NCBI GenBank assembly: GCA_010093815.1
Contig: ML996569.1
Length of the DNA stretch: 38,950 nucleotides
From: Pseudovirgaria hyperparasitica
Taxonomy: Eukaryota
Reading direction: 5' to 3' (one strand)
Numbering within the stretch: the first letter of the stretch is position 1; every line of letters begins with the position of its first letter. The translations under genes and the position numbers were made by a program. The notes below the pieces were generated by a model. It did not search any database, was not told the origin of the DNA, and worked only from the letters and a program-made list of their open reading frames with translations. Positions 1 through 28,278 of this stretch are shown piece by piece.

Positions 1-1861
1 TACTATAAATTAAAGATAGAGAGTAAGAAGACCGGCTTAGAAGAGTAGTTATATAAAGAAAGAAGAACTAATGAATTTAACTACCCCTCTCTAGTCGTAG
101 TACACGTCGCGCTAGGATCGGATAAGTTTAATAAGATAGTAGAGAGATTTAGTAAACTAGACCTTACGTTAATTAAGATAAAGTCCTACTTTACCTCTAA
201 TCCCTTATTCCCATCCCTTAAGAAGTACGAACCTAAGCTACTTTCGGCCATTATTAACTAGTAGGCGCGAAGGCTAAATCTTTTAGTATATCCCTAAGCA
301 CGAGGCATGCCCATAGAACTAACATAAGTTTATCTATAGAATTATATATAGAATAGAGAATACGTCTCTACCCGAGACTCCTAAGGAGGTATTATAGCCT
401 AGGATAGGCCTTAAAGACCAATTATATACATTACGTACGGAGGAGATCACCTAATATATAGATATCCGGAGATAGTAGAATATATTAGAGACGGATTACT
501 AAATATTAACGGGGTACGAGTATTCTAAGGGCGTTTCGGGGCGAATAGAGAAGAAATCCTATTACTACCCTCCTTAGTAGAGCTATAAGCTACTCTATAA
601 GCTATCCGGAACTACGTAGTAACGGTTTAAAACGGTCTAAGCTAGTGCGGAGGAGGAGTAAAGGTTTCTACGTCCGTAGTAAATATTAACGCTTTATAGA
701 GAGTACTAGTATATAGTATTAGTATAAAACCTACGAAGGGTCTCTACTAGGCCTTAGCGGATAGTAATTTAGAAGAAGAAGTTATATCGCCCGAGAGTAA
801 GAAAGATAGATATATAGAATTCTATAAACGCTTCGACGTGGCTAGTAATAGATATATCCACGAGGAGATAGCTCTAGAAGAGCCCGCTATACTTATAATA
901 TCTAGAAGGGGGATTACGAAGAGTATACCTAATTATACTAAGAAAAGAAAGATCGCCTATCTCTACGGAATGCGTGAAGGGTAGTATATAAGAATTATCG
1001 AGAAATAGAAGGACGGCGAGAAGAGTAGCGACTAGAGAACGTCTAAATAAGAGCCAACGGCGCTAGAGGATAAGATAGATAAAGGGGATAGCCTAAATCC
1101 TAGTTAAAAGGTATATATCTAAGGCGTTAAGCTTAATAACTATCTACGCGAAGGATAGCGGCTAAGCATAGAAGCTAGCGAAGTATAGCTAGTGCGCGTT
1201 CTAGGGATAACTATAAATATTACTATTAGCGAACTATTTAGCCTTAATAGTAACTTATATCGTACGGTATTTAAGAAGGGCGCCCTTGACTTTATAGCTA
1301 GAGAGGTCCGTAAGGCTCGAGAAGAGAAAGCCGAGAAGAAAGGAAGAAATGACCATACTATAGCTCCCGAGATAAATAAACTTAATATATTAGCACCCCT
1401 CTATACCACGGGGACGGCTATTATATAATAAGATATTAATTAGCTTAAGGAAGGGATAGTAAGACTAGTACCCGAGTATCTAAGATACCCCGTGGAAGTT
1501 AGTCCTAAAAGGGCGACTAGTATAGTACTATTTAATAGTGGCGTATAGGTAAATAGTATTCGACTAGATACTATAAGGCGTCTTAGGCTAGCGATATCTT
1601 CGCTTCTACTATATATAAAGAACTCGAGTTTAGTTAGCGCTACTTAGTATAGTACTCTATTCGTAGGAATAGTATAGTAATACCCTATCCGCATAGGTTA
1701 GATTATTACGGCTACTTCGATATTTATATATAGCGAACTTAATTATAACCTTATCCTAGAGGAGCCATATACTAGATAGGCCTTACTTACGGTATAGAGG
1801 TTAGCCTCTAGGTAAGTACTCTTAATAGTCTACTCCGTATATAGATAAGAATATATAACCT
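1..1861 (+). mobile_element. Gypsy family A internal fragment (gag 3' part with zinc knuckle, plus aspartic protease), RIP-degenerate
   Basis: Colinear with 7738-9598, differing mainly by C>T/G>A. Protease motif VLF[N<D]SG[V<A][*<Q]VN at ~1525-1555; CCHC-like knuckle at ~425-470. Confidence 0.9.
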
Positions 1862-3052: not shown

Positions 3053-3087
3053 GGTTATTAGTTAAGGGCTACCCTTAACTAATAATC
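3053..3087. repeat. ~35-bp palindrome, copy 1 (LINE L1 ORF2 end)
   Basis: TTATTAGTTAAGGG-CTA-CCCTTAACTAATAA, with 14-bp perfect arms. Confidence 0.97.
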
Positions 3088-6000: not shown

Positions 6001-6218
6001 GATATATTACCCTGGTTCCGTGGTACCCTCGAGTATCTCGTCTAGTATAAGTACACGTTATTAGTTATATATGTTATATATATATAGGGGGCCTATATCT
6101 ATTTATAGGTATAGTGTTATCCTAAGGTTATCGCGCTTAGTATACGACTATAATAAGAGTAGTATTAACCTATGAATGTAGAAGAGGACTCGTCTTTCTA
6201 GTCCTAGAGGGTATATAG
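3079..6218 (-). pseudogene. LINE ORF2 (AP endonuclease - reverse transcriptase - CCHC), RIP-inactivated, N-terminus missing
   Basis: Endonuclease motifs LLGDFN.. and SDH, the RT YADD box, and a C-terminal Cys/His knuckle. Ends ...ENPDY* inside the palindrome. Confidence 0.85.
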
Positions 6219-6590
6219 TGTGGAAGGCCGCTCCTGTAGCCCTACATGTATGTGTCCCTAGCTCGATCACATGGCTTCATTGTATATTTAAGGAGGGCGT
6301 TTTCCTTGGTCATTCTACTCGGCGCGCTCCCCCCATTACTAATATTCGACTATTCGACCTTTTCTTACGTTCATAGGCCTCTATAGGTATTGATTATTAG
6401 GCTTAGCTATTAAAGAATTGATTAAGAGTATTATATAGACCCGTCCTATTATAAAAGAGAACTAATAAGAAGTCGTACGTTCAAAGAGAACTCATAATAC
6501 CTGGGAGAGATACTTGTAAGTTCGTCGCGACTACTATACTAGGAACATAGCCATTTATAAAAGGGATACACGTGGCGATAGCTTACCATA
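6219..6590 (+). repeat. Gypsy A 5' LTR (372 bp)
   Basis: Starts TGTGG and ends CCATA (<CCACA). Direct repeat of 17189-17560 with the same length. Confidence 0.93.
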
Positions 6591-6594
6591 ATTT

Positions 6595-6611
6595 TAGAGG
6601 TCGTACCCGGA
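6595..6611 (+). promoter_or_regulatory. Primer binding site, probably complementary to the tRNA-Gln 3' end
   Basis: TAG(<TGG)AGGTCGTACCCGGA, 4 nt after the LTR. Resembles the complement of fungal tRNA-Gln ends (...CCGGGYNNGACCT-CCA), recalled rather than aligned. Confidence 0.6.
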
Positions 6612-7227
6612 CTATAAACTTATAGGGAGAGATTAGGACTCCGAAACTAGCTTAGGGGAAGTATATAGCGTGCCTAATAAGGTAGTCTAGAGTTACTAGA
6701 TCGAAGCCACGAGTCCGGAAAACAGGGAGTCTAGAGTCGCTAGGGGCTAGCCTCTTAAAAGTAGCCGTAAAAAGCATGCGTATACTAACACGGGTAATAG
6801 CGCGACTCGAAAATGTCTTAGGGGAATAGGATATAAAACAGGGCTAGATAAAGCAGTAAAGAAGAGTTTAAAAATGATAAATATAACCTATTTAGTGCTA
6901 CCATAGCTGTTATTTATAAATACGGCCATACGAGTATACTACTTTAGGAACGCCTTATACGAAGATAATAATATAAGTAGAATACCGTGAACCTTATATT
7001 AATAAAGACGATAGTAATAGTTCACCTTATAAAGGGATTAGTTAACATGGAGAAGGGATGATAGGTGTTATAGGTAGACGCATTAGGCCAACCTTTAGTT
7101 AAGGTAATCCCTTGACTAATAACCTTACCCCCAGCGTCTCTACTAGTATACCTACTACTAGTAATAGTGCGATAGGAGCTTAAAATAACGACCTAGTAAC
7201 TCGTAGAGAGATACTTAACTTCTTCGT
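6612..7227 (+). mobile_element. Gypsy A leader and probable start of gag
   Basis: Follows the LTR and PBS. A Ser/Thr-rich frame with only RIP-type stops runs at ~7082-7227. Confidence 0.65.
7095..7124. repeat. Degenerate palindrome copy (Gypsy A gag region)
   Basis: TTAGTTAAGG-TAATC-CCTTGACTAATAACC. Retains the G of CTTGAC; reads S[*<Q]GNPLTNN. Confidence 0.75.
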
Positions 7228-7737
7228 NNNNNNNNNNNNNNNNNNNNNNNNNNNNNNNNNNNNNNNNNNNNNNNNNNNNNNNNNNNNNNNNNNNNNNNNN
7301 NNNNNNNNNNNNNNNNNNNNNNNNNNNNNNNNNNNNNNNNNNNNNNNNNNNNNNNNNNNNNNNNNNNNNNNNNNNNNNNNNNNNNNNNNNNNNNNNNNNN
7401 NNNNNNNNNNNNNNNNNNNNNNNNNNNNNNNNNNNNNNNNNNNNNNNNNNNNNNNNNNNNNNNNNNNNNNNNNNNNNNNNNNNNNNNNNNNNNNNNNNNN
7501 NNNNNNNNNNNNNNNNNNNNNNNNNNNNNNNNNNNNNNNNNNNNNNNNNNNNNNNNNNNNNNNNNNNNNNNNNNNNNNNNNNNNNNNNNNNNNNNNNNNN
7601 NNNNNNNNNNNNNNNNNNNNNNNNNNNNNNNNNNNNNNNNNNNNNNNNNNNNNNNNNNNNNNNNNNNNNNNNNNNNNNNNNNNNNNNNNNNNNNNNNNNN
7701 NNNNNNNNNNNNNNNNNNNNNNNNNNNNNNNNNNNNN
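7228..7737. other. Assembly gap (N run)
   Basis: 510 consecutive N. Confidence 1.
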
Positions 7738-10700
7738 TACTATAAATTAAAGATAGAGAGTAAGAAGACCGGCTTAGAAGAGTAGTTATATAAAGAAAGA
7801 AGAACTAATGAATTTAACTACCCCTCTCTAGTTGTAGTACACGTCACGCTAGAATCGGATAAGTTTAACGAGATAGTAGAGAGATTTAGTAAACTAGACC
7901 TCACGTTAATTAAGATAAAGTCCTACTTTACCTCTAATCTCTTATTCCTATCCCTTAAGAAGTACGAACCTAAGCTACTTTTAGCCATTATTAACTAGTA
8001 GGCGCGAAGGCTAAATCTTTTAGCACATCTCTAAGCACGAGGCATGCCTATAGAACTAACGCAAGTTTATCCATAGAATTATATATAGAATAGAGAATAC
8101 GTCTCTACCCGAGACTCCTAAGGAGGCGTTATAGCCTAGGATAGACCTTAAAGACCAATTATATATATCACGTGCAGAGGAGATTACCTAATATATAGAT
8201 GTCCGGAGATGGTAGGATATATTAGAGATAGATTACTAAATATTAATAGGGTATAAGTATTCCGAGGGCGTTTCGGGGCGAACGGAGAAGAAATCCTATT
8301 ACTACCCTTCTTAGTAGGGCTATAAGCTACTCTATAAGCTATCCGGAACTACGTAGTAATGGTTTAAAACGGCCTAAGCTAGTACGGAGGAGGAGTAAAG
8401 GTTTCCACGTCTATAGTAAACATTAACGCTTTATAGGGGGTACTAGTATATAGTATTAGTATAAAATCTACGAAGGGTCCCTACTAGGCCTTAGCGGATA
8501 GCGATTCGGAAGAAGAAGTTATATCGCCCGAGAGTAAGAAAGATAGATATATAGAATTCCACGAACGCTTCGACGTGGCTAGTAACAGATATATCCGTAA
8601 GGAGATAGCCCTAGAAGAGCCCGCTATGCTCGTAATATCTAGAAGGGGGATTATAAAGAGTACACCTAATCATACTAAGGAAAGAAAGATCGCCCGTCTC
8701 TACGGAATGCGTGAAGGGTAGTATATAAGGATTATTAAGGAATAGGAGGACGGCGAGAAGAGTAGCGACTAGGGAATATCTAAATAAGAGCTAACGGCGC
8801 CGGAGGATAAGATAGATAAAGGGGATAGCCTAAATCCTAGTTAAAAGGCATGTATCCGAGGCGTTAAGCTTAATAACTATCTACGTAAAGGATAGCGGCT
8901 AAGTATAGAAGCTAGCGAAGCATAGCTAGTGCGCGTTCTAGGGATAACTATAAATATTACTATTAGCGAACTATTAAGCCTTAATAGCAACTTACGTTAT
9001 ACGGTATTCAAGAAGGGCGCCCCCGACTTTATAGCTAGAGAGGTCCGTAAGGCTCGAGAAGAGAAAGCCGAGAAGAAAGAAAGAAACGACTATACTATAG
9101 CTCCCGAGATAAATAAACTTAATATATTAGTACCCCTCTATACTATAGGGATAGCTATCACGTAACGAGATATTAATTAGCTTAAGAAAGGGATAGTAAG
9201 GCTAGTGGCCGAGTATCCGAGGTACCCTATAGAAGTTAGTTCTAAAAGGGCGACTAGTATAGTACTATTCGATAGTAGCGTATAGATAAATAGTATTCGA
9301 CTAGATGCTACGAGGCGTCTCAGGCTAGCGATATCTTTACTTCTACTATATATAAAGAACTTAAGTTTAGTTAGCGCTACTTAGTATAGTACTCTATTCG
9401 TGGGAATAGTATAGTAATACCCTATCTATATAGGTCGGATCGTTACGGCCACTTTAATATTTATATATAGCGAACTTAATTATAACCTTATCCTAGGGGA
9501 GCTATATACTAGATAGGCCTTACTTACGGTGTAGAGGTTAGCCTCTAGGTAAGTACTCTTAATAGTCTACTCCGTATATAGATAAGAACGTATAACCTTT
9601 AAAACTAGTCTAGATAAGTATATTCTAGTCTTAGAGAAGAAGGGTAACTCCATAGCTAGAGACTAACTATATAGCGGAGTATATCGCCGGAAGCCGGAGT
9701 TAAGCCGGATTATTAGTTAAGGGCTACCCTTAACTAATAATCCGTACTAAATGGGGTCCGGTAAACCTACTAATAAAGAGGATAGGCTATATTTTTATAC
9801 GGATATAGAAATAAGTTATATAGAGTTGCTTTCCGAGAAAATCCGGCCTAAAAATATTACTCGGTTATCGAGAAAAGATAACTTAGCCGCCCTAGTTACG
9901 GCGGTAAGGTACGCTACCTTCGTATATAAATAAGGTATAATAATAGAATAGCTTATAGTAGGCTCCACCGGCCTCTAAAGATAGTATTTATCTAGGGTAT
10001 TAAAGGGATTTAGTATAGCTACTATATATAAAAGAAAGGGAGTTAAAGTGTACCCTATGGATGACTCCGAAGCCTACCGAAAGGTTCCTAGGAATCTATT
10101 AGGGTATCTAGACTAGCGTAAACGAGTAATCGCACGGTAGGCACTTCTTCTAGCTATCTATCTAGGCCTTAACGCGTTTAATAGGCTAATAGAGCCTCGA
10201 AGGGTAACTATCCCGCTAGGAATACGTCTAACGCCTCTACGTATAAGTTAGCTAAAGATTAGAATAGAGCTATATCCTACGGAACTTAAGTTACTATATA
10301 TAATCTTATTACATCGCGAGGAAGTACTAGCATGGGAATTCTTATACCTTAGTAAATTTAACGAAGAGGTGGCACCTCCGTAGGAGATCCGAACGGTAGA
10401 ATATAAGGTATAGTAGGCTAAGAACTTTAATATTCCTAGAGCCCTTTATAGAAAGGTACTCACGATCCTAAAAGAGCGTCTTAATAGTAGAAGGCTCGAG
10501 CCCTATAGTAGTCCTTATCGAAACGCCTATTTTCTCGTGGAAAAGAAGAAGAAAGCCAATAAGGAACGAGATCATAGGTTAATTAATTCGGCGATAGAAA
10601 TCAACCGAGTCACTATTCGTAATGCGGCTACGCCGCCCTCATATAAAGAGTTCTTAGAGTACTTTATAGGGATGGCCGTCTTAACGTTTACCGACTTCTT

Positions 10701-13377
10701 CTTAGAATATAATTAGATTCTATTAGTAGAGTATTACCGAGACTTAATAGGGTTTATAACGCCCCTAGGATTGCTATACGAGATAATATTACCTTAAGGG
10801 GCCACTAATTCAGTAGCTTAGTTCGTTAGGATTATGTTAACTATTATATAAGAATACATCCCGGAGAGGGCTCTGCCATTTCTAGATGACTTAGGTATTA
10901 AAGGACCTACGACGAAATATAACTCTAAGGAGGCCCTGCCTAGAATTCGTAGGTATATCCTAGAATATTTAATTAACGTGGATAAGGTTCTCGCGGATAT
11001 AGAGCGCGCCGGATACGCCCTAAGTAGTAAGAAGACTTAGTAGTATATTAAAGCCGCTAACGTTATAGAATACGTCTACGATATTAAAGGGAGGCGACTA
11101 AGTAATAAAAAGGTTACTACTATTAGGGACTAGAAACCCTATAAAAACACGACGAATATGCGAGCCTTCCTTAGCGTTTATATATATTTCTAGATATAGA
11201 TCCCCGGGTACGCTATTATCGCATCGCCGCTATTTACACTATTAAAGAATAAATCGGCCTAGTAGTAGATAGCTAAGGAGTAGACCTCGATGGACGCGCT
11301 AAAGATAGCTCTAACCACTGCTCCCGTACTAATAACGTTATAGTACGGGATAGATATAGGAGATATAATCCTAGTAGTAGACTCTAGTAACGTTAGGTAG
11401 GGAGCTACGTTAATATAGGAGAACGAGGATTATAAATATTAGCCATCGCGGTATAATAGAGAAATATAGTTAAAAGCTAAGAGAAACTACGACACCGTGA
11501 AGCTAGAGTGCCGAGCCCTCCTCTACGCGTTATAGAAGTTCCGGTAATACCTCTATAGCACGCACTTTATTATAGAAATAGACGCGAATACTCTAGTCGC
11601 TTAAATCAACCGTACTATAACTAACTTACTAGGGGCGCTCGTTACTAGGTGGCTCGCGTGGATTTAGCTATAGAACTTTATAGTTAGGCACGTACCTAGG
11701 AAGCGTAACGTAGTCGCCGACGGTATCTCACGGATATACGAAGGAGAAGAACCACTAGACGTCCCTACCTTTAACCTAGACGAGTTCGTGGACATGGCTC
11801 TATATATAGACGTGCTAGAGATATTATTAATTAAGCCCGTTAGCGGGAGAGATTACACGATAGGGATACTCGACTATACCGCCATTAAGTCTCCCTTAAT
11901 AGATAAATATAGTAATAAATGGTAGAGGATTACGAAGTACCTTACTATACTTAAGAGGCTAACTAACCTAACCGACCGAGCGTATAAGGCCTTTATAACT
12001 AACTGCCTAAAGTTCCTCGTGCGTGACCGAATACTCTAGCGGAGAGGAGATAGGCATTACTAATATACACGAGTAATTAAGGATCCGAATACTAGGGCGC
12101 GTATAATTACCGCCACTTATAATAAGATAGATTATAGAGGTAGCGAAGGGACCCTCGGAAGGATTAAGGATAAGTATTAGTAGATAGATATACGTAGAGA
12201 CGTGCGATAGCACGTAAAAACCTATAATAAATATTAACGACGAAGTAAACTCCTCGGAGGTCTTAATAAAGGGCTCCACCACGTTATAACGCCTATTCTT
12301 TAGTAAAGAATATACTTGGACATAATAACGCTACCACCTTCCATAGGGTATAGTAAAGTAGTATCTATATAAGAATAGCTAAGCGGATAGACTAAGGCGG
12401 AGGCATGTACGGCGGCCACGTCTATAGTTATTATAAAGTTCCTCTTTAAGAACGTAATCTATAGATACGGAATCATTTCTAAAATCACCTATAACGGTGG
12501 TAGAGAAAATATAGGTGCCATAGAGGAGCTCCTCTAACTCTATAGAATTTATTAGAAGGTTACGTCTACGTATAATCCCCGAGTAAATAGGATTATCGAG
12601 AGAAGTTTTATACTACTCGCTAATGCTCTCGCGAAGATAACTAATGGCGGATTCAAGAACTAGCCCGGCTACCTCTATATGGTCGTCTAGATAGATAGAA
12701 TAACGACACGTGCTAGCATAGGGTATAGTACTATATACCTCGTGCTCGGCCATAAACCAATCATGCCTATCGAAGTCGAATTCAAGTTGCTCCGAATACT
12801 CCCTTAGGACGAGGTGCAATTAACGTCCGACTTACTCGCTCTTCGAGCTAGATAACTTAAGAGAAGATCCGAGGATCTTAAGAAGGCCCATGCCCATGCG
12901 ATACGAACGCGTAAGGAATCGAGAGAGATATAGAATAATAACTATTACCTTTATTAAGAGTCGTTACTAGTTAATACGATTATCCTTCTTTACGACTCGT
13001 AGTAATAGAAGGATATAGAGCGGAAGCTAAGGTAGCATTAGAGGGAGCCATATAAAATCCAGTCCGTGTTTAATTATACTTATAAGCTCGCGGAGCTTAA
13101 TAGAGCCATACTTAGAGAGACGTTTCCTAGCTATAGGTTAAAGAAATATTTTATAAGAAATATAAGTAATAAGAGTTACGATAAGCCCTTACGACTACTA
13201 ATTAGAAGAATTACCGAGGAAAATAAGGAGAGTAGCGATAAGGAAAACTATTATAAATAACTTACGGAATACCTTGACGACGCTACACGAACCCGGGTAA
13301 AAGTGGTAATTCCTACTCCGTAAGACTTTAATAGAGAAGAATATTTACGTTTCCCTAGAATTAATATCTCCTTCTAG
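7738..13377 (+). pseudogene. Gypsy A single-frame gag-pol (zinc knuckle, protease, RT, RNase H, integrase; no chromodomain), probably Ylt1-like
   Basis: All motifs are in frame +1: knuckle ~8164-8202, protease FDS[S<G] ~9268, RT PFLDDLGIKGPTTKY 10876-10920, RNase H VDSS..G ~11380, integrase HVKT[C]..[C] ~12211 and DDE core, GPY-like motif ~13045. Confidence 0.92.
9706..9744. repeat. Palindrome copy 2 (39 bp), in frame within the Gypsy A protease-RT linker
   Basis: CGGATTATTAGTTAAGGG-CTA-CCCTTAACTAATAATCCG, with 18-bp perfect arms. Reads RIIS[*<Q]GLPLTNNP in the pol frame. Confidence 0.97.
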
Positions 13378-13394
13378 GGGATAGAAGTTTTTTT

Positions 13395-13408
13395 AAGGAG
13401 GGAAGGAA
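13395..13408 (+). promoter_or_regulatory. PPT-like purine tract right after pol, not followed by an LTR
   Basis: TTTTTTT-AAGGAGGGAAGGAA about 20 bp after the pol end; the 3' LTR is 3.8 kb downstream. Confidence 0.6.
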
Positions 13409-13430
13409 TACTTATAAAAGTAGTCTTATA

Positions 13431-13530
13431 ACGATAAACTCTATTATCGAAAAAGGACGATAAACTCTATCATCGAAAGAGGATAATAAACCCTATTATC
13501 ACTATAAAATAATAAAACTTATTATTAAAG
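13431..13530. repeat. 26-bp tandem repeat, ~3.8 units, decaying rightwards
   Basis: ACGATAAACTCTATTATCGAAAAAGG / ACGATAAACTCTATCATCGAAAGAGG / ATAATAAACCCTATTATCACTATAAA / partial fourth. Unit 1 has an internal CGATAA..TTATCG dyad. Confidence 0.85.
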
Positions 13531-13733
13531 TAAGTAATGCTCGAAAGAAGATATAATGGCGTTTACGCGAATTCCACCTACTATATATTAAAGCCGGTCG
13601 TGTAATCGAAGCCTACCTATCGAAGGCCCATTTCGTTACTATAGAACGGGCCCTATTAGAAACTAATAAGGAAGAAAAGAAGGAGGAGGTATAGAAGAAA
13701 AAGATACTTATAGGAAGTCTTATAAGGATGAGA

Positions 13734-13838
13734 ATATACCCGGTATCTATTTATTTATAGATTCCGCCATATACCCGGTAGATATATTCATTTATAGATT
13801 TCCTATATACCTAGCATATATTTATTCATAGATTCGAC
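13734..13838. repeat. ~35-bp tandem repeat, 3 units
   Basis: Units of the type ATATACCCGGTATCTATTTATTTATAGATT start at 13734, 13769 and 13805; a partial unit is at 13888. Confidence 0.85.
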
Positions 13839-14056
13839 ACGTATACGGGCCTACAGCCGTTAGTAAGAATTATTTATAAAAATTACTATATACCCGGTAT
13901 TCGAGGAGGCATAAAAAGAGAACTTAAGATAGTATATAACTCTTCCCTCTTATACCTCTCCATACCTCCTTAATTAATAAAACCTCCTCCTCTACTTCCG
14001 CCTCGCTTAACTACCTCTCCTTAGAATATAACTCGCCGATAGAACTAATAATAATA

Positions 14057-17017
14057 ATAGTCCCGCCGAAAAAGAAAACGCCTACCCGTGAAGAGTTATA
14101 AGATCGTTAAGTACTAATAAGATAGACGCGGTCCTAGTTAAGAGTCGTAAGTGCTAAAGTAGGGCTATCGACGGCTATCGTGGTATTAAGGCTATCTACT
14201 ACTCCGTATAGATAGGCTATAGAAGCTATAGAAGTAAATAAGTCTACTATTAACCGAATTATCGCTATCTAGGACCCGTAAGAGTAATAGAACTATATTC
14301 TAGACACGTTTAATAATCTCCTTTATATTACTAGCCTTATAGAATAGCTCTTAAGTAGTATAGTTAACCTCTTCTAGGAAGTAGGAGCCGTAATAGGGTA
14401 TAGTAAGGCAAAGATTAACTCCTCCATTCCGAAAGAAGTCCATGAGATAATTCGTTATAGAAGAGATACTAACTCCCGCATCCTAAAAGCCAAAAATATA
14501 ATCCTATAAAACTAGCGAAAAGACCTCCCTAATAATAACGGCTAGTTACTCTAATCCGCCCTCGGATAGCTCTAGTAAATATAGAACTTTATAGAAAAGC
14601 TAGTAGCGCTCTTACGAATGCGGACATGGGCGAGAGCGAGGAACTAGTTAAATGTATCTCTATAGTCCCGAATTAGCTAGGGATAGAAGGGAAGAGAAAT
14701 TAAGGTATATCTTTAGAGCTCTAATATTAATGCCGCCCTAGCTAGTAATAGTAATAAGGACGGTCTATCTCTCTAGTAACTCTTAAACTACCCTAGCCGA
14801 TAAAATAAACTAACGTTCTATAATAAGACGGGACTTATTATCCCCGCTAGTTAATAGTTATAGATAAGTAGAATAGTTTATAGGCCCGTTAAATACTACC
14901 TATAAATCAAAGAGATAAGTACATCGCCTCCGCCTTAGACCTTACCATCGCTAAAACTAGCGTAGATAACACCTACGGTAAAGTCCCCTCCACGAAGTAC
15001 GCCTTCTAGTTTAGTAGTATATTATCTCTTTAAAGCTAGTCATTTATTTAAAGTAAGTATTCCTTCTACTACCACTAGTATATATCCCTTACCGGGCCAT
15101 ATAAGAACCTCTTTAGTATCTATTACAGCCACGCCGATAAAACCCACTCGCGGACGTGCCTTATCTACCGGCCCTTAGTAATTACCAGGGGCGCCTATAT
15201 AATAATCCCCGGTTATTCTTAGTTCGCACCCTAAGATAATAGCATCGGTCGAGGAAGAGGACGAGCCTAAGAAGTATTAATGCGCGCCTTTAGTAACGAA
15301 GACTTTTAAGGCAGCTATATTATTAAAGAAGAATTTCACGAGTATTAAGGGAATGGCCCTACTAGTACGCTAGAAAGCGTAGATAGGTAATATAGCTATT
15401 CCGTATAAAGTCTACTATAAGTATTACTAAGACGTGGCTAGAAAGAATAATATACTTATTAGTATATCCTACTTAAACCTAGTAGCGAGACTTAAAATAG
15501 TATATAAGTTTAGAGATAACGTGGGGGCCCTTAAAGTTTATAAGGACTACTACACCTAGTTTGCGAAGTACGCGCGGCCACCTTATCCGATAGAGGCATT
15601 AGATATCTATCGTTACTAGGCCCTAGAGACCCCGAAGTAAGTTATTAATATTAAAACTATCCTTACTAGTATCGTATTTATGATTTAGAAGGAGGATAGT
15701 AGGATAGGTAGGTAACTCTTCGACGAGTAGGAACGTACTAGAAGTATTAATATTAAAGGGCTCTTCGAGCTACTTAAAAAGACGACCTCTATACTTAATA
15801 AGAGTATTCTAGAACTCGCGAGGGATGAATTTAATATATATAAGTACTACCAGCGCATGTTTAATAAGAAATCGAACTACGGCTGGCTACGAACTATATA
15901 CCACTCCTATATCTAATAGTTTATTAGGTAATATCTACTTTACTAGCTTACCTATATCGCTCTTCGGCCCGATCTTAACTACTATCTAATCTCGTACCCG
16001 TACTATGCGAAGTCCTAGGATAGGGGCGATAAGACGGGTTTTAAGCATCTCGATAACGCTATTAATCGAATCCTTAATCCTAGCGATAGACACGGGTTTA
16101 ATATAATCTAGAGGAGTATTAGTCTCGACGACGAACGAAGTAATAACTATACTATAATCGTTCCCTACTTCTATAAGTTCTTAAATAAATAGTAGTCGAA
16201 GGCTAAGCTCCGCGAGGGGGTTAATCGAAACGGTATAATTACGGCTATTAACGATAAGATCTATAATACGGACGATAAGAAACGATTTAGTCCCTTCGTC
16301 CTAGTCCTCTACTAGTCCCTTAAAGTATATATCTCTAGCCCACTAATAATATACGGCGCCTAGGGTCCCGTAAAGGGTAGAAGACGTATAATACTTCTAT
16401 AGTATATCGCGATTAGCCCTAATCATATAATAATAGAAGTACCTAAAATAGGCATATAGGAATAACTCGTAGTAGCTTATAGGAATTTAACTCCGGGACC
16501 TACGTCTCCGTCGGGATTTTCTAATAAATATAGCGCGATTCCTTTTGCCTTCCTAGCCGTAGTTTAACTCCTAAGTTTTAACGCCGTTAGTAACGCATTA
16601 GTCGGCCGTAAAAGATAGGATAGCTAGGAGGTAAAAGAAGAGGTAGCTATGTGGCTTAACGTAAGTCCTTAATAACTTAAAGCTAAGGTAGACGCCTAGT
16701 TTAAGGAGGGCTTAAGGGTATTCATAGAGACCTTTAAGAAAATAGTAAGGTAGGAAAGGCTAGTCTATAGGGATAGGTCGTTCTAGAAGGAATTTCATGA
16801 GGCGCGCACCGCTAAGCGGCTAATTAATTTTAAGAAATTCGAGTCTAACGCGGGCCTAGATAACGTTAAAGAGAACTTCTATAGATAGGAGAGGTCTAAC
16901 GAACTATCTAATAAGGAGGAATCTAACCTCTCTAAGATAAGCGATACGATTCTTTAGGAGCTAGCTCGCGACCTTAAGTACTAAGATTAGGCGCCTAAAA
17001 ACCTACCTAATTATTAG
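14057..17017 (+). pseudogene. Gypsy A cargo gene: ~990-codon protein with a C-terminal Fe(II)/2OG dioxygenase-like (PhyH-like) domain, RIP-inactivated
   Basis: Continuous frame +2 with only TAA/TAG interruptions, starting [M]VPPKKKTP. Conserved-looking block GWLRT..HS / ALRPD..ISYPYYAKS..GDKTGFKHLD (H 16046, D 16052) / I[Q][G]S[V]SLDDE..[C]TIIVP / [H]GA[Q]GP..GRRR..L[P][W] (16352-16402). Both ends are uncertain. Confidence 0.8.
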
Positions 17018-17042
17018 TTAAGGGCTGCCCTTAACTAATAAT
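17010..17042. repeat. Palindrome copy 3, at the end of the cargo ORF
   Basis: ATTATTAGTTAAGGG-CTG-CCCTTAACTAATAAT. Its TAG (17015-17017) is in the cargo frame. Confidence 0.97.
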
Positions 17043-17188
17043 CCGGGCTAAGGTTTACCCGCGCCGAGAGGTTTACTAGAGGCGCATTTTATTTATATTA
17101 AGGTCTTTCTTTTAGGCGTTCTTCATACGGTTTCTTACACGGTTACTATACTACTAAGGGTAGTAGTTCTATAGGCCGGGGAGGTATA

Positions 17189-17560
17189 TATAGAAGGCCG
17201 CTCCTATAGCCCTATATGTATATGTCCCTGGCTCGATTATATGGCTTTATTATATATTTAAGGAGGGCGTTTTCCTTGGTCATTCTACTCGGCGCGCTTC
17301 CCCCATTACTAATATTCGACTATTCGACCTTTTCTTACGTTTATAGGCCTCTATAGATATTAATTATTAGGCTTAGCTATTAAAGAATTAATTAAGAGTA
17401 TTATATAGACCCGTCCTATCGTAAAAGAGAACTAATAAGAAGTCGTGCGTTTAAAGAGAACTTATAATACCTAGGAGAGATACTTATAAGTTCGTCGCGA
17501 CTACTATACTAGGAACACAGCCATTTATAAAAGGGACATACGTAGCGATGGCTCACTACA
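17189..17560 (+). repeat. Gypsy A 3' LTR (372 bp), preceded by a PPT (GGGGAGG, 17178-17184)
   Basis: Direct repeat of 6219-6590; ends CA. Confidence 0.93.
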
Positions 17561-18059
17561 CTAGACACCTACTTAACTACTATAATACCTCTAAAACCTA
17601 TAGAATAATATCCCTACGCTATAGGAAAATATTTATATATTCTAGTTTCGCGAAGTACTACTTCCGTTAATCCGCGAAAGACTAGAAATAGTATTATTAA
17701 GTTTTAACTATCTACACGAATTAGAGGAGAAAGCTAATAAATACTACCGCATCCTTAAGGAACGCGGCTCTCTAGGTAAAACCGACGAACCCTATATAGG
17801 TTAGAAATAAGGTTAATTAAATATATTTAATTAAGAGTAACCTTACCGCGATTAGTACTAGAAGAGTATAAATCGGGGTAGAAACGCGTTAAGAGGATAC
17901 CGAAATAATTAAGGCGGTACTCCTTAATATAGAAAAGGATAAGGTATAGACTTAAATATAACGCCTATCGTAAAATAGTAGGATTATAGCGTACTTTATT
18001 ACTATAAGTATAGAGAAATAGAATATATTTTATCTAACTATAAGAATCCGAAAAAAGAA

Positions 18060-20327
18060 TAGGCTAGTATATAAGACCTAACTACGTTCTTAGCTAAATT
18101 ATATATACTTAGAAGGAGCTATAGCGTCTTCTAGTAAGTAAAGATCTAATATTACTAAAAGTATCGTTATCTATAGTAAATAGTAATAAAACTATATAGA
18201 CCCTCATAGATACTAGTATAGAAAATAACTATATTTCATCAATTCTCATAAAGGAGTATAGATTATTATATAATCTTAGTAAAGTTAGCTAAACTATTAT
18301 AGTTAATAGATATAAAGTTAGAACTTTAGATAAAGCTATAATAAATTATAAAGTTCATAACTTAAAGATAATAAAATAGTAGATATCTAATAAATTTATC
18401 GTGGCTAATATTAGCTAATAGAATATAATTCTAGGGATGCCTTAGCTTAGACATCTAAACCCTATCCTTAATTTTTAGAAGAAGATATTAACGTTCTAAC
18501 GATACCGTGGTAAATTATACTAGTAAGTTATAACTATTAGTAAGGAGGCATAGAACCTTACCGTACGGACCCGATCGTCGCTAATCTATCTTATATCCTT
18601 ATTAATCATCGATAAAGATAAGGATAATAGTAATAATCGGGGCGAAGACACGCTACCCGATATATATTCGTAGTATATAGATGTATTTTCGGTAGGAGAT
18701 ACGTTACTTCTCCCTAATTACGGGCTATATAAGCTAAAGATTAAGCTTAAAGAGGGAGTAGACGTCCCTTATAGCCTACTTTACCTACTTTCGAGACTAG
18801 AACTTAAAGTTCTTTATAAATATATTAAAGAATACCTCGAAAGAGGCTAGATATATTATAGTATATTATCGGTCGGTGTATCTATTCTCTTCGTAAAGAA
18901 GAAAGACGGAAGTTTACGTCTATATATTAACTATTAGATACTAAATATAGTAACTAAGAAGAATCGTGGTCTATTACTACTAGTTAGTAAATCTTTAGAC
19001 TAATTAATAAAGGTAAAGTACTTTATAAAGCTAGATTTATAAGATATATATTACTAGCTTTAAATTTATCGCGGAGATAAGTGGAAAACTACATTTCGGA
19101 CTAGATATAGTTATTTTAAGTATACTATTATACTATTCGGGCTAATAAATATACTAGGAGCGTTTTAAGGATATATTAATACTATACTCGTAGGATTACT
19201 TAACGTGATTTACGTAGTTTATCTTAATAATATACTAATTTACTCTAATAGTATATAGAATTATAAAGAACACGTGAAATCGGTACTAAATCGTCTAAGG
19301 TAGTATAAACTCTATATAAAATTATCTAAATACGAGTTTCACTAATAAGAAGTTAGGTTTCTCGGCTTTATTATAATATATAGAGGCCTAAAAATAGAGC
19401 CGGAGCGTGTAAAGACCATTATAGAATAGCTAGAATCTACTACTATATATTAAATTAGAATATTTATAGGTTTTATAAACTATTATTATAAATTTATTAT
19501 AGGCTTCTTATAAATTACGGCGCCGCTTAATAAACTTATAGAGAATAGTAGTAAAATCTCTATAGATGGGCGAGTATAGCGTAAAGCTAAGTCGGTCGAG
19601 ATATAGTTAATACTAGAAGCGCGAGATACGTTCTAATTATTAAAGAATTACTTTATAACTACGCCGATTCTTAGGTATTTTAATCCTAAGAAGTATATTT
19701 AGGTTAAAACTAACGTGTTAGAATTCGTAATTACTAGAATTATTAGTTAACCGTATAAAGATACGAAAGATAAGGTATAATAGTACCCGGTCGCTTTCTT
19801 TTTCTATAAAATAGCGGATATAGAGACGCGTTATAATACGCATAACTAGAAACTACTTATAATTATTAAGAGTTTTAAGTAATAGCGATATTATTTAGAA
19901 GGCTCCGTATATTAGATTAAATTATTATTAGATTATATAAATCTATATTACTTTATATTAACTAAGGTCCTTAATCGCCGATAAGTATATTAGGCTAAGT
20001 AGATATTAATATTTAACTTTAAAATCTTATATAAAGCTAGAAGAGAGAATAAAGCTAATCCTCTATCACGGTATAAAGATTATAAGAAATTATCATAGAA
20101 TAACGTAGATAGTTAGTATAAGTTAGACTATACTATACTTTAGATACTATAAGACTAGTTATCTAATAGAATACTAGAAGCTAGGATACTTTTAGCGATT
20201 CTCCGCGGGAATTAGAGCGGGTATTAAGTAATCTAAATAAACGTCTAAGAAACTAAGAAAACCCTTAAAGACTTAATTAAATCTACCTAGAATTCTAATA
20301 TATTAGTAAAGAAAGTTATAAGTATAA
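18060..20327 (+). pseudogene. B1 pol, 5' part (protease, RT, RNase H)
   Basis: LIDT[G][A]ENNY ~18203; FVKKKDGSLRL ~18889; VVYL[D][D]ILIYS ~19213; RNase H motifs YPVAF and ELL.I. Confidence 0.9.
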
Positions 20328-20563
20328 TAATAATAATAATAATATTAGTAAACTAGGTAGAGTACCACTCTATAGGCGCATGCCTCCTCTAGTCTAAGCT
20401 ACTATATAAGAAGAAACCTACGAATAGGAAAAACTCCCTTATATCCATAACTACGCTCTATCTATCCTCTCGTTCTTTATATATATATAGCCCTAGGGGC
20501 TACCCATAGGCCTATAGCCTATATTATAATAGTTTACCCTTAGGCAGCACGTGTAGGTGCGGA

Positions 20564-20598
20564 GATTATTAGTTAAGGGCTACCCTTAACTAATAATC
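20564..20598. repeat. Palindrome copy 4 (LINE L2 ORF2 end)
   Basis: GATTATTAGTTAAGGG-CTA-CCCTTAACTAATAATC, with 16-bp perfect arms. Confidence 0.97.
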
Positions 20599-23500
20599 GC
20601 GGTTCTCCCGGGGTTCTTCCGACGTATACCGGGGTTCTTCCGGCATATATTAGGCTTCTTCTAGTATATATACGCGGGTCTACTAGAACTAGGGGAGAGG
20701 AAGGTGTACGAGTATCTATCGGGCGACGTTCTTAGGGTACTTATTAAGCTATCGCGTAATATTAGAGGTCCTCGTCATACGGACGAGGGCTTATCTTAGG
20801 GTATAGAGACTAGAGCACGTCGCGAGATAGTAGTATATTATACCTCTCCGGCCGTAGTCCTCGCACTAGAGAGATATATCTAGGACGCCTCTCTAGTAGA
20901 GGTAATATAGAAGATCTATAGCGTCTATTCGGGCTTAGAGAAGTATAGATACTTAGGCCTTCGTTAGCCCTTTATATATCTATTTACTCGGTTCCTTCTA
21001 AGGCCCTTAGATCTATTCTAGATACCTATCCTATTAGGAGGCCCACTAGGCTTTAAGTACCTCTCTCTATTTATTCTAGATCCACGACTATATAACGCGG
21101 CTAAGCTCCTTAGGGCTCTATTAGCTCGGGACGGCATCCGGGTTATTTTAAACCTTCTATACGGTCTAGCTCGAGTCCGCCTCTATATAGTATTTATATT
21201 ATACTTAAGTTTATTCTATAGTAGGGAGGGCCTAGTAATACGCGCGGATACGTGTGCGTAGTACGGCGAAGGTATATACCCTATCTCCTCTATATTCTTA
21301 TACTTATTATTTAGTAAAGTATATAAGTCTCTATATCTAGTAGAAGTTCTATATACTCGTTATATTTATCTCGCGTTAGAGGAGCGTTGTGTTAGTAGCT
21401 TTATATACACTAGAGATAAGGCGGAGTATATAGTTTTATATAGACTTAAGCTTTACCCGCCAAGCTTATATAAGGGCCGTGTACTAGTACTCGTATCCGT
21501 ATATAAAGGCTAGGCGTACTAGGGAGACGTATAGCTGTCTTATCTTATCCTAGGCTATTCCCTATGTGGATGCCGTAATCCGGCGTATAGCGGTTTCTAC
21601 CTAGAGGGCTCTAGAGACAGCGTGTGCCACCTATGGTCCCTATTTTAGCTTATTATCGATTATAACGCCGAGTACTCGTATACTCTATACTAGTAGTTCT
21701 ATAAAGGCGTCGATTTAGGGGCGACGTGCCCCCTCCCTAGTAGCCTATCCTCTATAGTAGTTAATAAAGTATATAAGCTAGTATTTTTTAGGTGCGAATT
21801 TTACTCCGTGGCGCTTTATCTACTAGACGCATTTCTCGTGGTCTCGTTCGAGTCGTGTACATGTTCTACTAGTACTACTATCGACCGCGAGGAGGTATAT
21901 ATCGTCCGTATATCCGACTACCTCTATATATTCTATTCCCTAAAGAAGGTCTACTATAAAGAAGAGGAAGAGGATCGGGGAGATAGTGCTCCCTTACGGG
22001 ATGCCGTATACCGTCTCCTTATATTCGCTTCGGTATCCGGGGATATATATTTAAGTAGTCCTTTACGCGAGAAAGGACTATATAAATCGTATAATCCACT
22101 TAGGTATTCGCCTTATCCGGAGGTTATAGATAAGTCTTATATAGTTTACCTTATTAAACGCCCCTACTATGTCTAGGGAGAGTAGCGTGATAACTCGTCC
22201 TTATTTCTATATAGTCTAGATAATCTTAAGGATATGTTAAATAGCTATAATTAGGGAGCTTTCTACCTTCGCCTTCTAGTTTACTAGAAGAAGGCCGTAT
22301 ACCTATACTACTATACTTATCTTCTTAGTAATCGTGGCTTCTAGTACCTTACTAAGGTAGGAGAGGAGGGCGATCGGCCTCCATCCCTTCGGCGTGTTTA
22401 GACTCTTCCCTGGTTTTAGAAGTATAACCGTGTGTACGGTTCGGAAGCTCTATAGGTAGTATCCTATACGGGCGCACGCTCGGAATATATAGCCTATAAT
22501 CGGTAAGGTCGCCTATATAGTCCTCTTAAGGCATCGATTCGGAATTCTATCTAGCCCGGGCGCTTTATCGTTCGGGAGTATCTTAATAGCGCCGAGTATA
22601 TCGTCGTCTATGATTTCCCTAGGGATACTTACGGCTTCCGGGTATTCCGTACCATTAATATCTAATAGGTCTACGGGTTCTAGGAGAGGGAATATAACCT
22701 CTTATAGAATCTCTATTTTCTCGAGGCTCGTAGAGTACGTCTTTTCTTAATATATAAGGGGGGGTATAAGTGGTGTAGGTGTTAGGGAGGCGGTGCTTTT
22801 GGCCTATTTTACTATATACTATAGTCTAGTAGTATTACGTGTATATCTATCCGTGACTATATACTACTATTTACGTCGCTTATTACGGAGGACCTTATCT
22901 CGTTATCTTCTCGCCTCTCTCTATTTATCCTACGCTTTAGGTATACGGTTATAGTATACGCGTGTGTATAATCTCCGGACTTCTCGCCTATGCTCTTACA
23001 CTTAAGATATGCTTTTCGGGTCTAGGGGTCTATATATTTAGTACGGCACGTGTTTATCTCTTACTCCCTAGTACGCCTATAGGAGTATGTTCACGGCCTA
23101 GTCGATAGCCGGGCCATTAGATACATTAACTATAGACGGGTCTAGGATCGTCGATTCCAGGTCCTTTAGATACTTTTCCTAGTTAGTATCCTTCTATAGC
23201 CATCGCCCTCGTTAGTCTTAAGGGGTAGATACATCTATTACGGTCTCCATGTATTCGTGGTCGGAGTCTATCTATATAAGGCTTAGGCGGTAGTATTAAG
23301 TCCTATTATAAATATATCTAGTAGCTAGGGTAAGGTCGAGTGTGGATCCGCCCTTATCTTATTTATATTTTCGCTAGGTAATCTATTCTACTAGTATAAG
23401 AAGGTATAGGAAGCCGTAGCATTAGGTGCGTAGTTCTCTAGCTTAAAGCTCTTCGCGGGTGATAGTTAGTCTACCCTACTAGCTATGATAGAGGTTGAAG

Positions 23501-23892
23501 TCTCCTAGGAGGATGTATTATTCTAGCTCGGTAGTACCCTTAAGTATATTATCCGCCTAAAGCGATTAGTTCTAATTATATATATTATATATATAGAGGG
23601 GTCTAATATTCGTCTAGAGGTGTAGTATTATCCGGAGGTTATCCCGTTTAGTATACGACTATAATAAGAGTAGAATAGACTTATAGATATGGAAGAGGAC
23701 TCTCCTCTCCGGTCCTAGGGGGTATATTATATAATATTCTAGGTGTGCTATTGGTTTATTCGTCTGGTAGTATTTATATAGCTCCTATATAGCGAGTATT
23801 ACAGCTCCGGTCTCCTCGAGGAGTATCACCTAGTTCTTACGTTTATACTATACGTTTACCTATATAATTAGAAGTATATCTTGGTCTCTTAT
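20590..23892 (-). pseudogene. L2 ORF2, full length (~1100 codons): AP endonuclease, RT, CCHC knuckle
   Basis: One frame throughout: [Q]E[P] and [H]N.YN motifs, ILLGDFNL, SDHEY, GY[T<A]DD at 21901-21915, CED[C]..[H]....TC at ~20815-20865, ending ENRDY*. Confidence 0.9.
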
Positions 23893-24342
23893 TAGATACT
23901 AGGGAATATATAGGCCTATATATTCGTTCCTCTAAGACGCGACTATCCTCGTACGGCGGCGGCCTTAGTAATTCCTCGGGGCCGTCCTATTATTAGCTTT
24001 CTTAGGACGGTTTACTATTCCTAACCGCTTCCTCGTGAGGAGGTAGTCTATAGTAGTAGTATTATAGTAAAGAGAGGAACGGTAGTAGGTCGTATCGTTT
24101 ATAGCTACCTTACTCCCTTTATCCGGATTAAGTAGATATATTCGGTAACCTATTTACGTTTCACGCACGTAGCCGACCATGACGGGTGCTTGCCGTCGTA
24201 GTTGGAGTACTTCGCCGTGTCCCTATCCCTCTAGCCCTCTCCTCGTGTCCCGTAGGGGCACTCCTAGGTACTATATTCTTATCGATACCACCCACACCTA
24301 GTCTTTTAGGAGTACCACTATACCGTGTACCCGTATCCCTAA
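23892..24342 (-). pseudogene. L2 ORF1 3' part (gag-like, tandem CCHC knuckles)
   Basis: G[H]T..W[C]; CGW[C]..E[H]ST.EC; [C]SN[C]DGKHPSWSATC. Confidence 0.85.
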
Positions 24343-25857: not shown

Positions 25858-26196
25858 AATATTCTAAGGAATTAAGGAACTTCCTTAGAAAGTTTAAACT
25901 TAGAACTTTAAAAAATTTAACTAAAAAGGAGACTTAGAAAAATGATTTACTAAGAGAAATAGATATTAAAAATCGGTGCCGATTAGTATAGATCGGTATA
26001 GATTACTAAAGAGATTAAAGAAGTTATTATTAAAGAAAGATAAAATTAAGAAAGCTAAAAGAAAATATAAAGATCTATATAGATCTATATAAACTTATAC
26101 TAATCTATCTAGAAGAAGTAAGATCGCTTTAAAATTAAAACTAAAAAACCAAAAACACTAGATAAAAGAGATATATTAGTACCGATCGGTATAGAT

Positions 26197-27794: not shown

Positions 27795-28278
27795 ATTATA
27801 ATTATTACTAATTTATACGGATTATTATGAATTATATTATTACTAGCTAAGAACGGTACGAAAATTAGTAAATTGCGTAAATCGTACTAAATTATAGTAA
27901 ATCTATATAAATCTATATCTATAAGAATCGGGTAATATATCTAATAATCTAAAAAACTCTATAAAGAGTTAAGAAGTTTTTTAAAGAAAGGAATATTTCT
28001 AAGAAAAGATTTTAATATAGGTAGTACCCGGGCTTATCTAATTATATTACGTGATACGCTAGGCCTAATTAGGTAATCTTACCTATATAAGAAGTTAAGA
28101 TAGATAAAATCTAGTTTATTAGAAAAACACTTATATAAATCTTAGATTAGCGAATATTAGTAAGTATCTAAGACGAAGTATAGAGAACGACTAAGGTCTT
28201 ATAAGACTTAGAATAGGGATATAGAGATAGATAATAATCTAGGTTACTAAGGGTAGCTTCCTAGAGAGAAGGAATAAT

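Follow-up and report, generated by a model that had tools for sequence, protein, structure and literature searches.

A putative PhyH/DUF1479-class dioxygenase encoded by a third gene of fungal Ty3/Gypsy retrotransposons

The DNA analysed, referred to here as the window, is a stretch of 38,950 nucleotides (nt) from Pseudovirgaria hyperparasitica (contig ML996569.1, assembly GCA_010093815.1). It contains a degraded open reading frame (ORF) at 14057-17017, called ORF3 here, which lies between the pol gene and the 3' long terminal repeat (LTR) of a Ty3/Gypsy retrotransposon. Positions 6212-17558 are very probably a single copy, inactivated by repeat-induced point mutation (RIP), of a highly repeated element whose lineage bears ORF3 behind gag and pol. 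Sequence comparison shows ORF3 to be a real gene and part of the element; it is met again in several lineages of Gypsy elements, under as much constraint as pol. Modelling of an intact homologue supports the assignment of the C-terminal half to the Fe(II)/2-oxoglutarate (2OG) dioxygenases, within the PhyH/DUF1479 structural class. Fungal retrotransposons seem not to have been described with such a gene before. The copy in the window is a dead relic, and the interest lies in the family that it revealed.

The frame that opens at 14057 contains 25 TAA, 48 TAG and 0 TGA stops. A stop count alone proves little here, because the in-phase antisense frame has fewer (59), and the density in the ORF3 frame is clearly low only from about 15000 to 16800; the frame was settled by homology. 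A profile of 31 intact homologues was searched against the six frames of the whole window and gave a single match, in the ORF3 frame (6e-110; profile positions 28-851, nt 14246-16816). Because this match is colinear within one frame, there is no frameshift across about 2.6 kb. A local profile run was split into two parts, 14240-14761 and 15251-16819, in the same frame. The antisense frame was considered as a gene and rejected, with zero profile matches on the minus strand. When the sequence at nt 14996-17017 was translated with X at the stops, 12 proteins of 512-950 amino acids (aa) were matched (E 6e-73 to 1e-12), the best being an intact homologue of 911 aa (E 6e-73). The same kind of translation of 14057-17017 gave nothing in a Pfam search of the three forward frames, this copy being too degraded for a Pfam test.

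The element was delimited by its repeats. Self-BLAST gave a direct repeat pair of 92% identity (6210-6586 and 17183-17556), with which the alignment concurs, and the LTRs derived from it (6212-6588 and 17185-17558, 92% identical) flank the coding region. The ends at 6588 and 17558 were fixed by contigs from DNA runs of the same organism, since these exit the window at 17558 and continue into the sequence that follows the 5' LTR, passing from the LTR end into TAATTTTAGAGG. Upstream of ORF3, the pol protein of an intact relative (locus L012) was matched colinearly by tblastn (residues 125-1182, 36% identity over 1088 aa). Reference pol of the L012 type bears RVT_1, RT_RNaseH and Integrase_H2C2, and the colinear match supports the order reverse transcriptase, RNase H, integrase in the window; a direct Pfam match to RT_RNaseH/RT_RNaseH_2 was found at nt 11278-11661 (E 2e-13). 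The frame with position modulo 3 equal to 1 is poor in stops from 7738 to about 13500. A Pfam search of 6589-10005 was without match, and this region is presumed to hold gag and protease because the intact relatives L012, L016 and L042 show gag upstream of pol. ORF3 sits inside the LTR pair, downstream of pol on the same strand and just before the 3' LTR.

This layout was found repeatedly in metagenomes. At least 480 relatives were confirmed in a scan of JGI metagenome contigs, and 80 loci (numbered with the prefix L) were kept. At 36 loci the contig reached 3 kb or more beyond the estimated start of ORF3 on its upstream side. Immediately before ORF3, and in the same orientation, 22 of these loci show homology to pol, with a full pol at 19 and only a decayed integrase piece at 3 (L017, L018 and L026, one element from three samples). 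Intact gag, protease, reverse transcriptase, RNase H and integrase ORFs precede ORF3 at L012, L016, L042, L064 and L080. The LTRs of L012 and L016 are 100% and 99.6% identical, respectively, and enclose all three ORFs, with ORF3 at L012:8746-11595 and L016:7570-10419; in these intact relatives the spacer between pol and ORF3 measures 451-467 nt, and 50-58 nt separate the ORF3 stop from the 3' LTR. About 8 distinct pol lineages carry ORF3 (the L012 group, L014, L040, L041, L042/44, L064, L080 and the window). Between L012 and L016 the ratio of non-synonymous to synonymous substitution rates (dN/dS) is 0.071 for ORF3, 0.086 for pol and 0.197 for gag. Two sister pairs, the window with L040 and L064 with L080, are present in both the pol and the ORF3 tree. 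L040 is the nearest pol relative of the window and also the carrier of its nearest ORF3 relative. Since the layout recurs in about 8 pol lineages and dN/dS resembles that of pol, ORF3 is best described as an integral third gene rather than a one-off capture. The preliminary description of this DNA, made from its letters alone, had placed the gene between integrase and the 3' LTR of a Gypsy element, and the pol match upstream and the LTR pair bear this out. It had also called ORF3 a cargo gene: the gene is indeed borne by the element, and the word cargo understates a conserved third gene with a dN/dS of 0.07, like pol.

Copies within the organism itself were followed in two DNA runs, in which 21,944 and 7,407 contig pieces were placed on 9600-17560 at a likeness of at least 80%; as the pieces are contigs, these figures yield no copy number. 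They fill all 30 bins, over pol and ORF3 alike, and the genome of the window organism therefore holds many variant copies of ORF3. Pieces of run X1 differ from the window by about 352 transitions and 4 transversions. Two runs from another study with the same species label contained next to none of the stretch.

In the permuted contigs L041 and L044, the gag and pol ORFs come after an ORF3 piece. The ends of these contigs are repeated at 99.4-99.5% identity (positions 1-207 and 10826-11032 of L044; 1-167 and 10054-10220 of L041). Each is therefore read as an entire element of about 10-10.8 kb that was assembled in tandem or in circularly permuted form, which is what a recent multi-copy LTR element should give.

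The catalytic residues were located by alignment with the homologues (Table 1). In the L012 protein (P0003), H602, D604, H703 and R713 are at least 90% conserved among 139 sequences. Among 31 sequences H630 and H730 are invariant, as is a CxC...CxxH motif that precedes the core, and D632 is at least 90% conserved. R740 (P0001) and R713 (P0003) are invariant or at least 90% conserved in alignments A3 and A4. To judge from its position only, the Arg about 10 residues past the distal His would bind the C5-carboxylate of 2OG. These positions agree closely with what had been read from the letters alone: a frame of about 3 kb without frameshift and with TAA and TAG stops only, an intact H-L-D, a distal His lost by a CAC to TAC change, and Arg residues shortly after it, which proved to be an Arg-Arg pair. 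Six further residues that had been guessed beneath the mutations (Q685, G686, V688, C698, H706 and H766) are also the homologue consensus, the window lying one or two RIP-type transitions away from each. The basic N-terminus beginning PPKKK, the helical region and the Pro/Ser/Thr linker of the earlier reading are all present in the window ORF3, and ATA at 14057 is aligned with the Met of a homologue that begins MPPKLKK.

The decay of the gene was assessed at 166 columns with the same residue in at least 6 of 8 homologues. The window matches at 94 and differs at 72. A T>C or A>G change within the codon would reverse 46 of the 72 differences, whereas the opposite changes would reverse 1, and the 12 stops at these conserved columns replace W (7), Q (4) and P (1). 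RIP indices are 1.8 (TpA/ApT) and 0.2 ((CpA+TpG)/(ApC+GpT)) for the ORF3 region, and 1.7-1.8 and 0.2-0.26 for the element. On this comparison, the stops and most of the substitutions in the window ORF3 are RIP-type transitions. With 73 stops and the distal His changed to Tyr, the window copy is dead. A separate pattern was seen at adjacent pairs where the window has TA and most other copies in the same-organism DNA runs have CG (9982-3, 14285-6, 14674-5, 15083-4, 16075-6, 16144-5 and 16302-3). CpG sites were therefore struck on both strands in the window copy, which hints at a CpG-directed component of mutation beside the depletion of CpA.

The family is large and almost unannotated. The full ORF3 frame matched 563 clusters (50% identity) at E ≤ 1e-3, 295 at E ≤ 1e-10 and 79 at E ≤ 1e-30, and the names met were 'hypothetical protein' and one generic dioxygenase label. 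Homologues with a named source are hypothetical proteins from metagenome-assembled genomes of lichen-forming ascomycetes (Caloplaca, Xylographa, Peltula and Candelina). Intact homologues of about 900-950 aa consist of an N-terminal helical domain, a disordered Ser/Pro-rich linker, the CxC...CxxH motif and a C-terminal dioxygenase. A basic N-terminus (the PPKLKKR stretch) was found in just 1 of 8 aligned homologues.

An AlphaFold2 model was computed from 139 sequences for P0003, the ORF3 product of the intact Gypsy element L012; the model is thus of a homologue and not of the degraded window copy. The mean predicted local distance difference test score (pLDDT) was 79.6. A helical domain (residues 11-210, pLDDT about 90) is joined by a disordered linker (212-341) to a C-terminal region (345-865, pLDDT >90) with a double-stranded β-helix (DSBH, cupin) core. 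Foldseek returned 222 PDB matches at E ≤ 1e-3, and all the top matches listed were 2OG oxygenases of the PhyH type, among them SnoN, proline hydroxylase H11, EvdO1, EctD, GriE and YbiU (E about 1e-6, probability 1.0). In the VIA structural search, YbiU (DUF1479) was at the top with Z 21.2 (278 residues aligned, model residues 387-789), followed by Candida Gig2 (DUF1479; Z 19.6, 282 residues); PhyH-type enzymes scored Z 13-16 (human PhyH 13.7, PHYHD1 13.2). NMAD-1 scored 8.7, ALKBH3 and NgTET1 8.4 and the AlkB-type entry 3h8o 8.3, and no JmjC protein was present among the 50 VIA rows listed.

Sequence profiles gave a more distant picture of the same relationship. At E ≤ 0.01, Pfam PhyH (PF05721) was the sole family matched, by 11 of 31 members; in a set of 12 homologues it exceeded the gathering cut-off (22 bits) in 3 (26.2, 39.4 and 27.4 bits) and was found below it in 3 more. 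The family is, on these profile scores, a distant, divergent PhyH branch and not a clear member of PF05721. PF07350 (DUF1479/Gig2-like) matched 0 of 31 members at E ≤ 0.01, so the likeness to that family is structural only. The A3 profile found no chain among PDB sequences at E ≤ 0.01; the best score (0.029, Nop56) fell within the low-complexity linker, and dioxygenases were absent from the seven rows at E ≤ 1. An Atlas search gave scores of 0.89 to PhyH and Gig2-like clusters, including one neighbour cluster with PF07350 on 41% of its members; these are leads only. Identities of the TET/JBP and AlkB types were considered and rejected: Pfam models of the TET_JBP, AlkB-type and JmjC families matched 0 of 31 members, NgTET1 scored no better than generic DSBH proteins, and ALKBH3 stands far below YbiU. 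The preference for a PhyH-like branch over AlkB or TET/JBP, voiced from the motif spacing in the preliminary description, therefore holds, as does its reliance on a DSBH fold and a conserved distal His.

The N-terminal domain (P0003 11-210; L012:8746-9390; window 14240-14761) was also modelled alone (pLDDT 88.5). No Foldseek match to it reached E ≤ 1e-3, and VIA scores went no higher than Z 5.0, to helical hairpins. Two of its residues, R152 and D170, are shared by 90% or more of 74 sequences, and this conservation suggests a functional site.

A working scheme for the gene can be outlined. ORF3 would be transcribed from the element as a spliced or internally promoted sub-genomic RNA, since it is env-like in position and follows a spacer of 450 nt; an ORF placed after pol and before the 3' LTR usually implies a sub-genomic mRNA. 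In the predicted product, Fe(II) would be held by H-x-D...H and 2OG by the Arg ten residues further on, and a working oxygenase would oxidise its substrate and so raise the fitness of the element. The substrate may be a macromolecule, that is, a host or element protein or a nucleic acid, tied to host control or to the replication cycle, and to this we would give somewhat less than an even chance. A small molecule seems doubtful, and nucleic-acid or chromatin marks, which form a subset of the macromolecular option, more doubtful still. Action on such marks, as suggested in the preliminary description, stays purely conjectural, because the nearest folds belong to enzymes of small molecules or to uncharacterised oxygenases. 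A wider proposal is that a widespread fungal Ty3/Gypsy clade depends on an active ORF3 oxygenase of the PhyH/DUF1479 type, joined to a domain of novel fold, as a counter-defence factor that would oxidise a component or mark of RIP, DNA methylation, heterochromatin or RNA silencing, and that the free homologues are domesticated copies. It is put forward tentatively and is more probably wrong than right.

A narrower form of this idea, that ORF3 is a demethylase of nucleic acid or chromatin (5-methylcytosine or N6-methyladenine in DNA, N6-methyladenosine (m6A) in RNA, or histone methyl marks) which shields the element from RIP, DNA methylation and heterochromatin, was judged unlikely. Transposon precedents favour it, by analogy, and the fold neighbours do not. 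An additional ORF of orchid Ty3/Gypsy elements is an AlkB-type enzyme with m6A demethylase activity (PMC9289625), and TET/JBP genes are carried by fungal DNA transposons and some Helitrons (PMC12730594). The basic start (PPKKK in the window copy, PPKLKKR in one homologue) would suit such a role, as would the company of some relatives, which lie beside Helitron (L027, L031 and L047) and Plavaka (L049) genes as is typical of TET/JBP genes. Against these stand the low scores of ALKBH3 and NgTET1 (just Z 8.4, against 21.2 for YbiU), the lack of JmjC proteins among the 50 rows listed, the 0 of 31 Pfam matches to TET_JBP, AlkB-type and JmjC models, the rarity of the basic N-terminus (only 1 of 8 aligned homologues), and the heavy RIP mutation that the window family has suffered anyway.

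Several results weigh against ORF3 as an integral, functioning gene of the Gypsy element. No pol was found upstream at 14 of the 36 loci with enough flank. Because many linked loci are copies of the L012 family from one metagenome, the number of independent lineages is about 8 and not 22. Grouping of the Gypsy-linked ORF3s as one clade was rejected by an approximately unbiased (AU) test (p 3.8e-6, 8 rows against 11; LG+G4; the group was named once a tree had been inspected, and the rows of the window and of L039 were excluded). The gene has therefore changed contexts, or lost its element, several times, in a direction that may be either capture or escape. The nearest solved structures are small-molecule or uncharacterised oxygenases, with no nucleic-acid or histone oxygenase near the top of the rows listed. 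No target-site duplication or primer-binding site of the window copy was recognised at its RIP-mutated flanks: CTAGA is present on both sides of the element, yet 2-3 nt off the LTR ends, and no 4-6 bp duplication adjoins these ends. No RNA run was listed among those that contain the stretch.

Much of this would be accommodated if the homologues were metabolic host genes, small-molecule oxygenases like DUF1479/Gig2, that had been captured repeatedly, with the element copies as dispensable passengers. The closest folds, the loci without upstream pol and the non-monophyly of the Gypsy-linked rows are all in keeping with this reading, and the branches of a free-standing clade (L007, L008, L010, L046 and others) are short and its dN/dS values are 0.14-0.29, like those of a host gene under vertical inheritance. 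Passengers would not be expected to show the constraint measured for the element ORF3, which is that of pol (0.071 vs 0.086), nor a position and strand that are constant in about 8 divergent pol lineages, nor two sister pairs common to the pol and ORF3 trees. Shortly upstream of some otherwise free copies (L017/18/26, L021/22 and L045) there are remains of a decayed integrase, from which it follows that the element was lost around a surviving ORF3 at least three times; these remnants point to element loss rather than capture. The N-terminal domain and the layout of about 900 aa are also common to element-borne and free copies. Repeated capture of a host gene was accordingly considered improbable. 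That the 3-kb stretch is a one-off, either a foreign element inserted into a Gypsy copy or a single captured host gene, is scarcely credible. An element of unusual length (about 11.3 kb with its gap) in a window of nested repeats is what such an event might leave. The order gag-pol-ORF3-LTR is, on the other side, found in many independent contigs with near-identical LTRs, L040 is closest to the window in pol and ORF3 alike, the same-organism contig pieces cover ORF3 as they cover pol, and self-BLAST shows no extra terminal repeats around 14057-17017. The single capture that had been named beforehand as an alternative is thus answered by a linkage of pol, ORF3 and LTR that recurs. ORF3 as a constrained third gene of the element remains the preferred interpretation.

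Homologues outside Gypsy elements were found in several settings. At L027 (5553-10642) and L031 (9038-17121) the homologue is tail-to-tail with a Helitron Rep/PIF1 helicase gene at a distance of 0.2-0.5 kb; at L047 a Helitron gene lies 4 kb upstream of the ORF3 homologue, and at L049 a Plavaka transposase lies 3.4 kb upstream. ORFs for SNF2-related or helicase C-terminal proteins occur a few kb from free ORF3 homologues (L008 12380-13744, L055 13985-15721 and L005 7401-8648), and these neighbours may be a coincidence or part of a shared larger unit. L017, like L018 and L026, has an intact ORF3 homologue of 986 aa from stop to stop (9764-12721), preceded by the integrase remnant (8588-9568) and an unannotated ORF of 1044 aa (4938-8069). 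The unit is bounded by 290-bp inverted repeats of 92% identity (2254-2543 and 12971-13260), was found in three samples, and could be a domesticated or re-mobilised derivative. Large plus-strand frames upstream of other ORF3 homologues (L009 1409-5245, L013 3263-7126 and L055 1320-4034) had no Pfam match at E ≤ 0.01; the unannotated upstream ORFs measure 1044 aa in L017, 1279 aa in L009, 1288 aa in L013 and 905 aa in L055.

Table 1. Features of the Ty3/Gypsy element and of ORF3 in the window (RIP-mutated, nested fungal repeats; N gaps at 1862-2846 and 7228-7737).
Feature	Position	Strand	Basis
Partial second copy of the same element family, gag side	1..1861	+	92% identical to 7738-9598 (self-BLAST); ended by the N run 1862-2846
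5' LTR	6212..6588	+	Self-BLAST pair and alignment; start approximate
Leader and presumed gag/protease region, RIP-degraded, N gap 7228-7737	6589..10005	+	Low-stop frame (position modulo 3 = 1) from 7738
pol: reverse transcriptase, RNase H, integrase	10006..13239	+	tblastn with intact L012 pol
pol C-terminal tail and non-coding spacer ahead of ORF3	13240..14056	+	Low-stop pol frame fades at about 13500
ORF3, RIP-inactivated, 987 codons, 73 TAA/TAG stops	14057..17017	+	Homology to intact 911-aa protein (E 6e-73); profile match
ORF3 N-terminal helical domain, fold unrecognised	14240..14761	+	Profile positions 26-196, independent E 3e-4
ORF3 C-terminal region, predicted Fe(II)/2OG dioxygenase: helical lead-in with Cys/His motif, then DSBH core	15251..16819	+	Profile positions 342-852, 5e-110
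H-L-D, predicted first two iron ligands, intact	16046..16054	+	Residues 664-666; H664 and D666 invariant in alignment A1
Predicted distal iron-ligand codon, now TAC (Tyr)	16352..16354	+	His in 8 of 8 aligned homologues; one C>T from a His codon
Arg-Arg, 10-11 codons past the distal His, predicted 2OG C5-carboxylate binder	16382..16387	+	R776 and R777 invariant in A1
Purine run GGGGAGG, polypurine-tract-like, abutting the 3' LTR	17178..17184	+	Read from the sequence
3' LTR	17185..17558	+	Self-BLAST, alignment and contig junctions

The rest of the window is made up of other repeats. A non-LTR retrotransposon (long interspersed nuclear element, LINE) is present as three RIP-degraded copies on the minus strand (2847-6216, 20357-23727 and 37804-38950), which are 73-94% alike; the domains Exo_endo_phos_2 and RVT_1 were identified by Pfam in the middle copy, also on that strand. 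Another Gypsy family, with RVT_1, RT_RNaseH and SH3_Tf2-1, occupies 17560-20327 and 24343-28504, split by the LINE at 20324-24342, and is found again as an inverted copy at 35422-29116. The inverted copies therefore form a large palindrome around 28.5-29.1 kb. No ORF3 homologue was detected in this second family when the profile was run on the whole window.

ORF3 was compared with systems already described. The best structural matches to its C-terminal region, including the helical lead-in before the DSBH core, are YbiU and Gig2 (DUF1479, PF07350; 4rgk and 6akz), which are single-domain proteins of about 400 aa, are not transposon-borne and share no sequence-level family membership with ORF3. 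To our knowledge, the substrates of YbiU and Gig2 are not established. Members of the PhyH family (PF05721: PhyH, PHYHD1, EctD, SnoN/SnoK and the proline and leucine hydroxylases) have, like ORF3, a DSBH fold with an H-x-D...H triad followed by an Arg, and human PhyH has a comparable His-to-Arg spacing of about 10 residues. The substrates of known PhyH members are CoA esters, free amino acids or natural products. ORF3 differs from them in its length of about 900 aa, its two extra regions and its transposon context, and the Pfam model is matched by 11 of 31 members at E ≤ 0.01. The position after pol and before the 3' LTR is that of the env-type third ORFs of errantiviruses, retroviruses and plant Athila/Tat elements; these encode a membrane glycoprotein, whereas ORF3 encodes a predicted soluble enzyme.

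The closest precedent for an oxygenase in a retrotransposon comes from Phalaenopsis, where the extra ORF of Ty3/Gypsy elements is an AlkB-type m6A RNA demethylase (PMC9289625). That element resembles the ORF3 carrier in being an unusually large Ty3/Gypsy element with an additional ORF for an Fe(II)/2OG dioxygenase and in the suggestion that the enzyme acts against host control. It differs in its plant host and AlkB branch, against a fungal host and a PhyH/DUF1479-like enzyme here (AlkB Z 8.4, YbiU 21.2), and its acquisition is described there as recent, while ORF3 extends across about 8 divergent pol lineages and 563 clusters. TET/JBP genes ride fungal DNA transposons and some Helitrons, and a 2025 survey states that it met with no TET/JBP dioxygenase encoded by a fungal retrotransposon (PMC12730594). 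Their carriers are likewise fungal transposons, with many divergent copies of a 2OG dioxygenase thought to serve the transposon, and TET/JBP genes and ORF3 relatives both adjoin Helitron or Plavaka genes; the branch of the enzyme is different (0 of 31 Pfam matches, NgTET1 Z 8.4). In the available portion of a giant-transposon review, a dUTPase is reported in fungal LTR elements and an oxygenase is not mentioned (PMC6431247). Additional ORFs of a different kind, for instance brtn, are carried by Gypsy elements of Botrytis (bioRxiv 10.1101/2021.04.13.439636). No description of a PhyH- or DUF1479-type dioxygenase in a fungal LTR retrotransposon was found in the full-text literature searched, a scope that did not extend to subscription journals, Repbase or supplements.

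In these sources, the transposon-borne 2OG dioxygenases described so far are TET/JBP enzymes in fungal DNA transposons and one AlkB ORF in an orchid Gypsy element. What the ORF3 family would add to these precedents is a different branch of the superfamily, carriage by LTR retrotransposons of ascomycetes, a constraint like that of a core gene and an N-terminal domain of apparently novel fold. Because intact natural copies with identical or nearly identical LTRs are available (L012 and L016), experiments need no reconstructed sequence. The family opens to experiment the question of how retrotransposons might counter genome defence in RIP-using fungi, and it bears on whether the host homologues are domesticated transposon genes.

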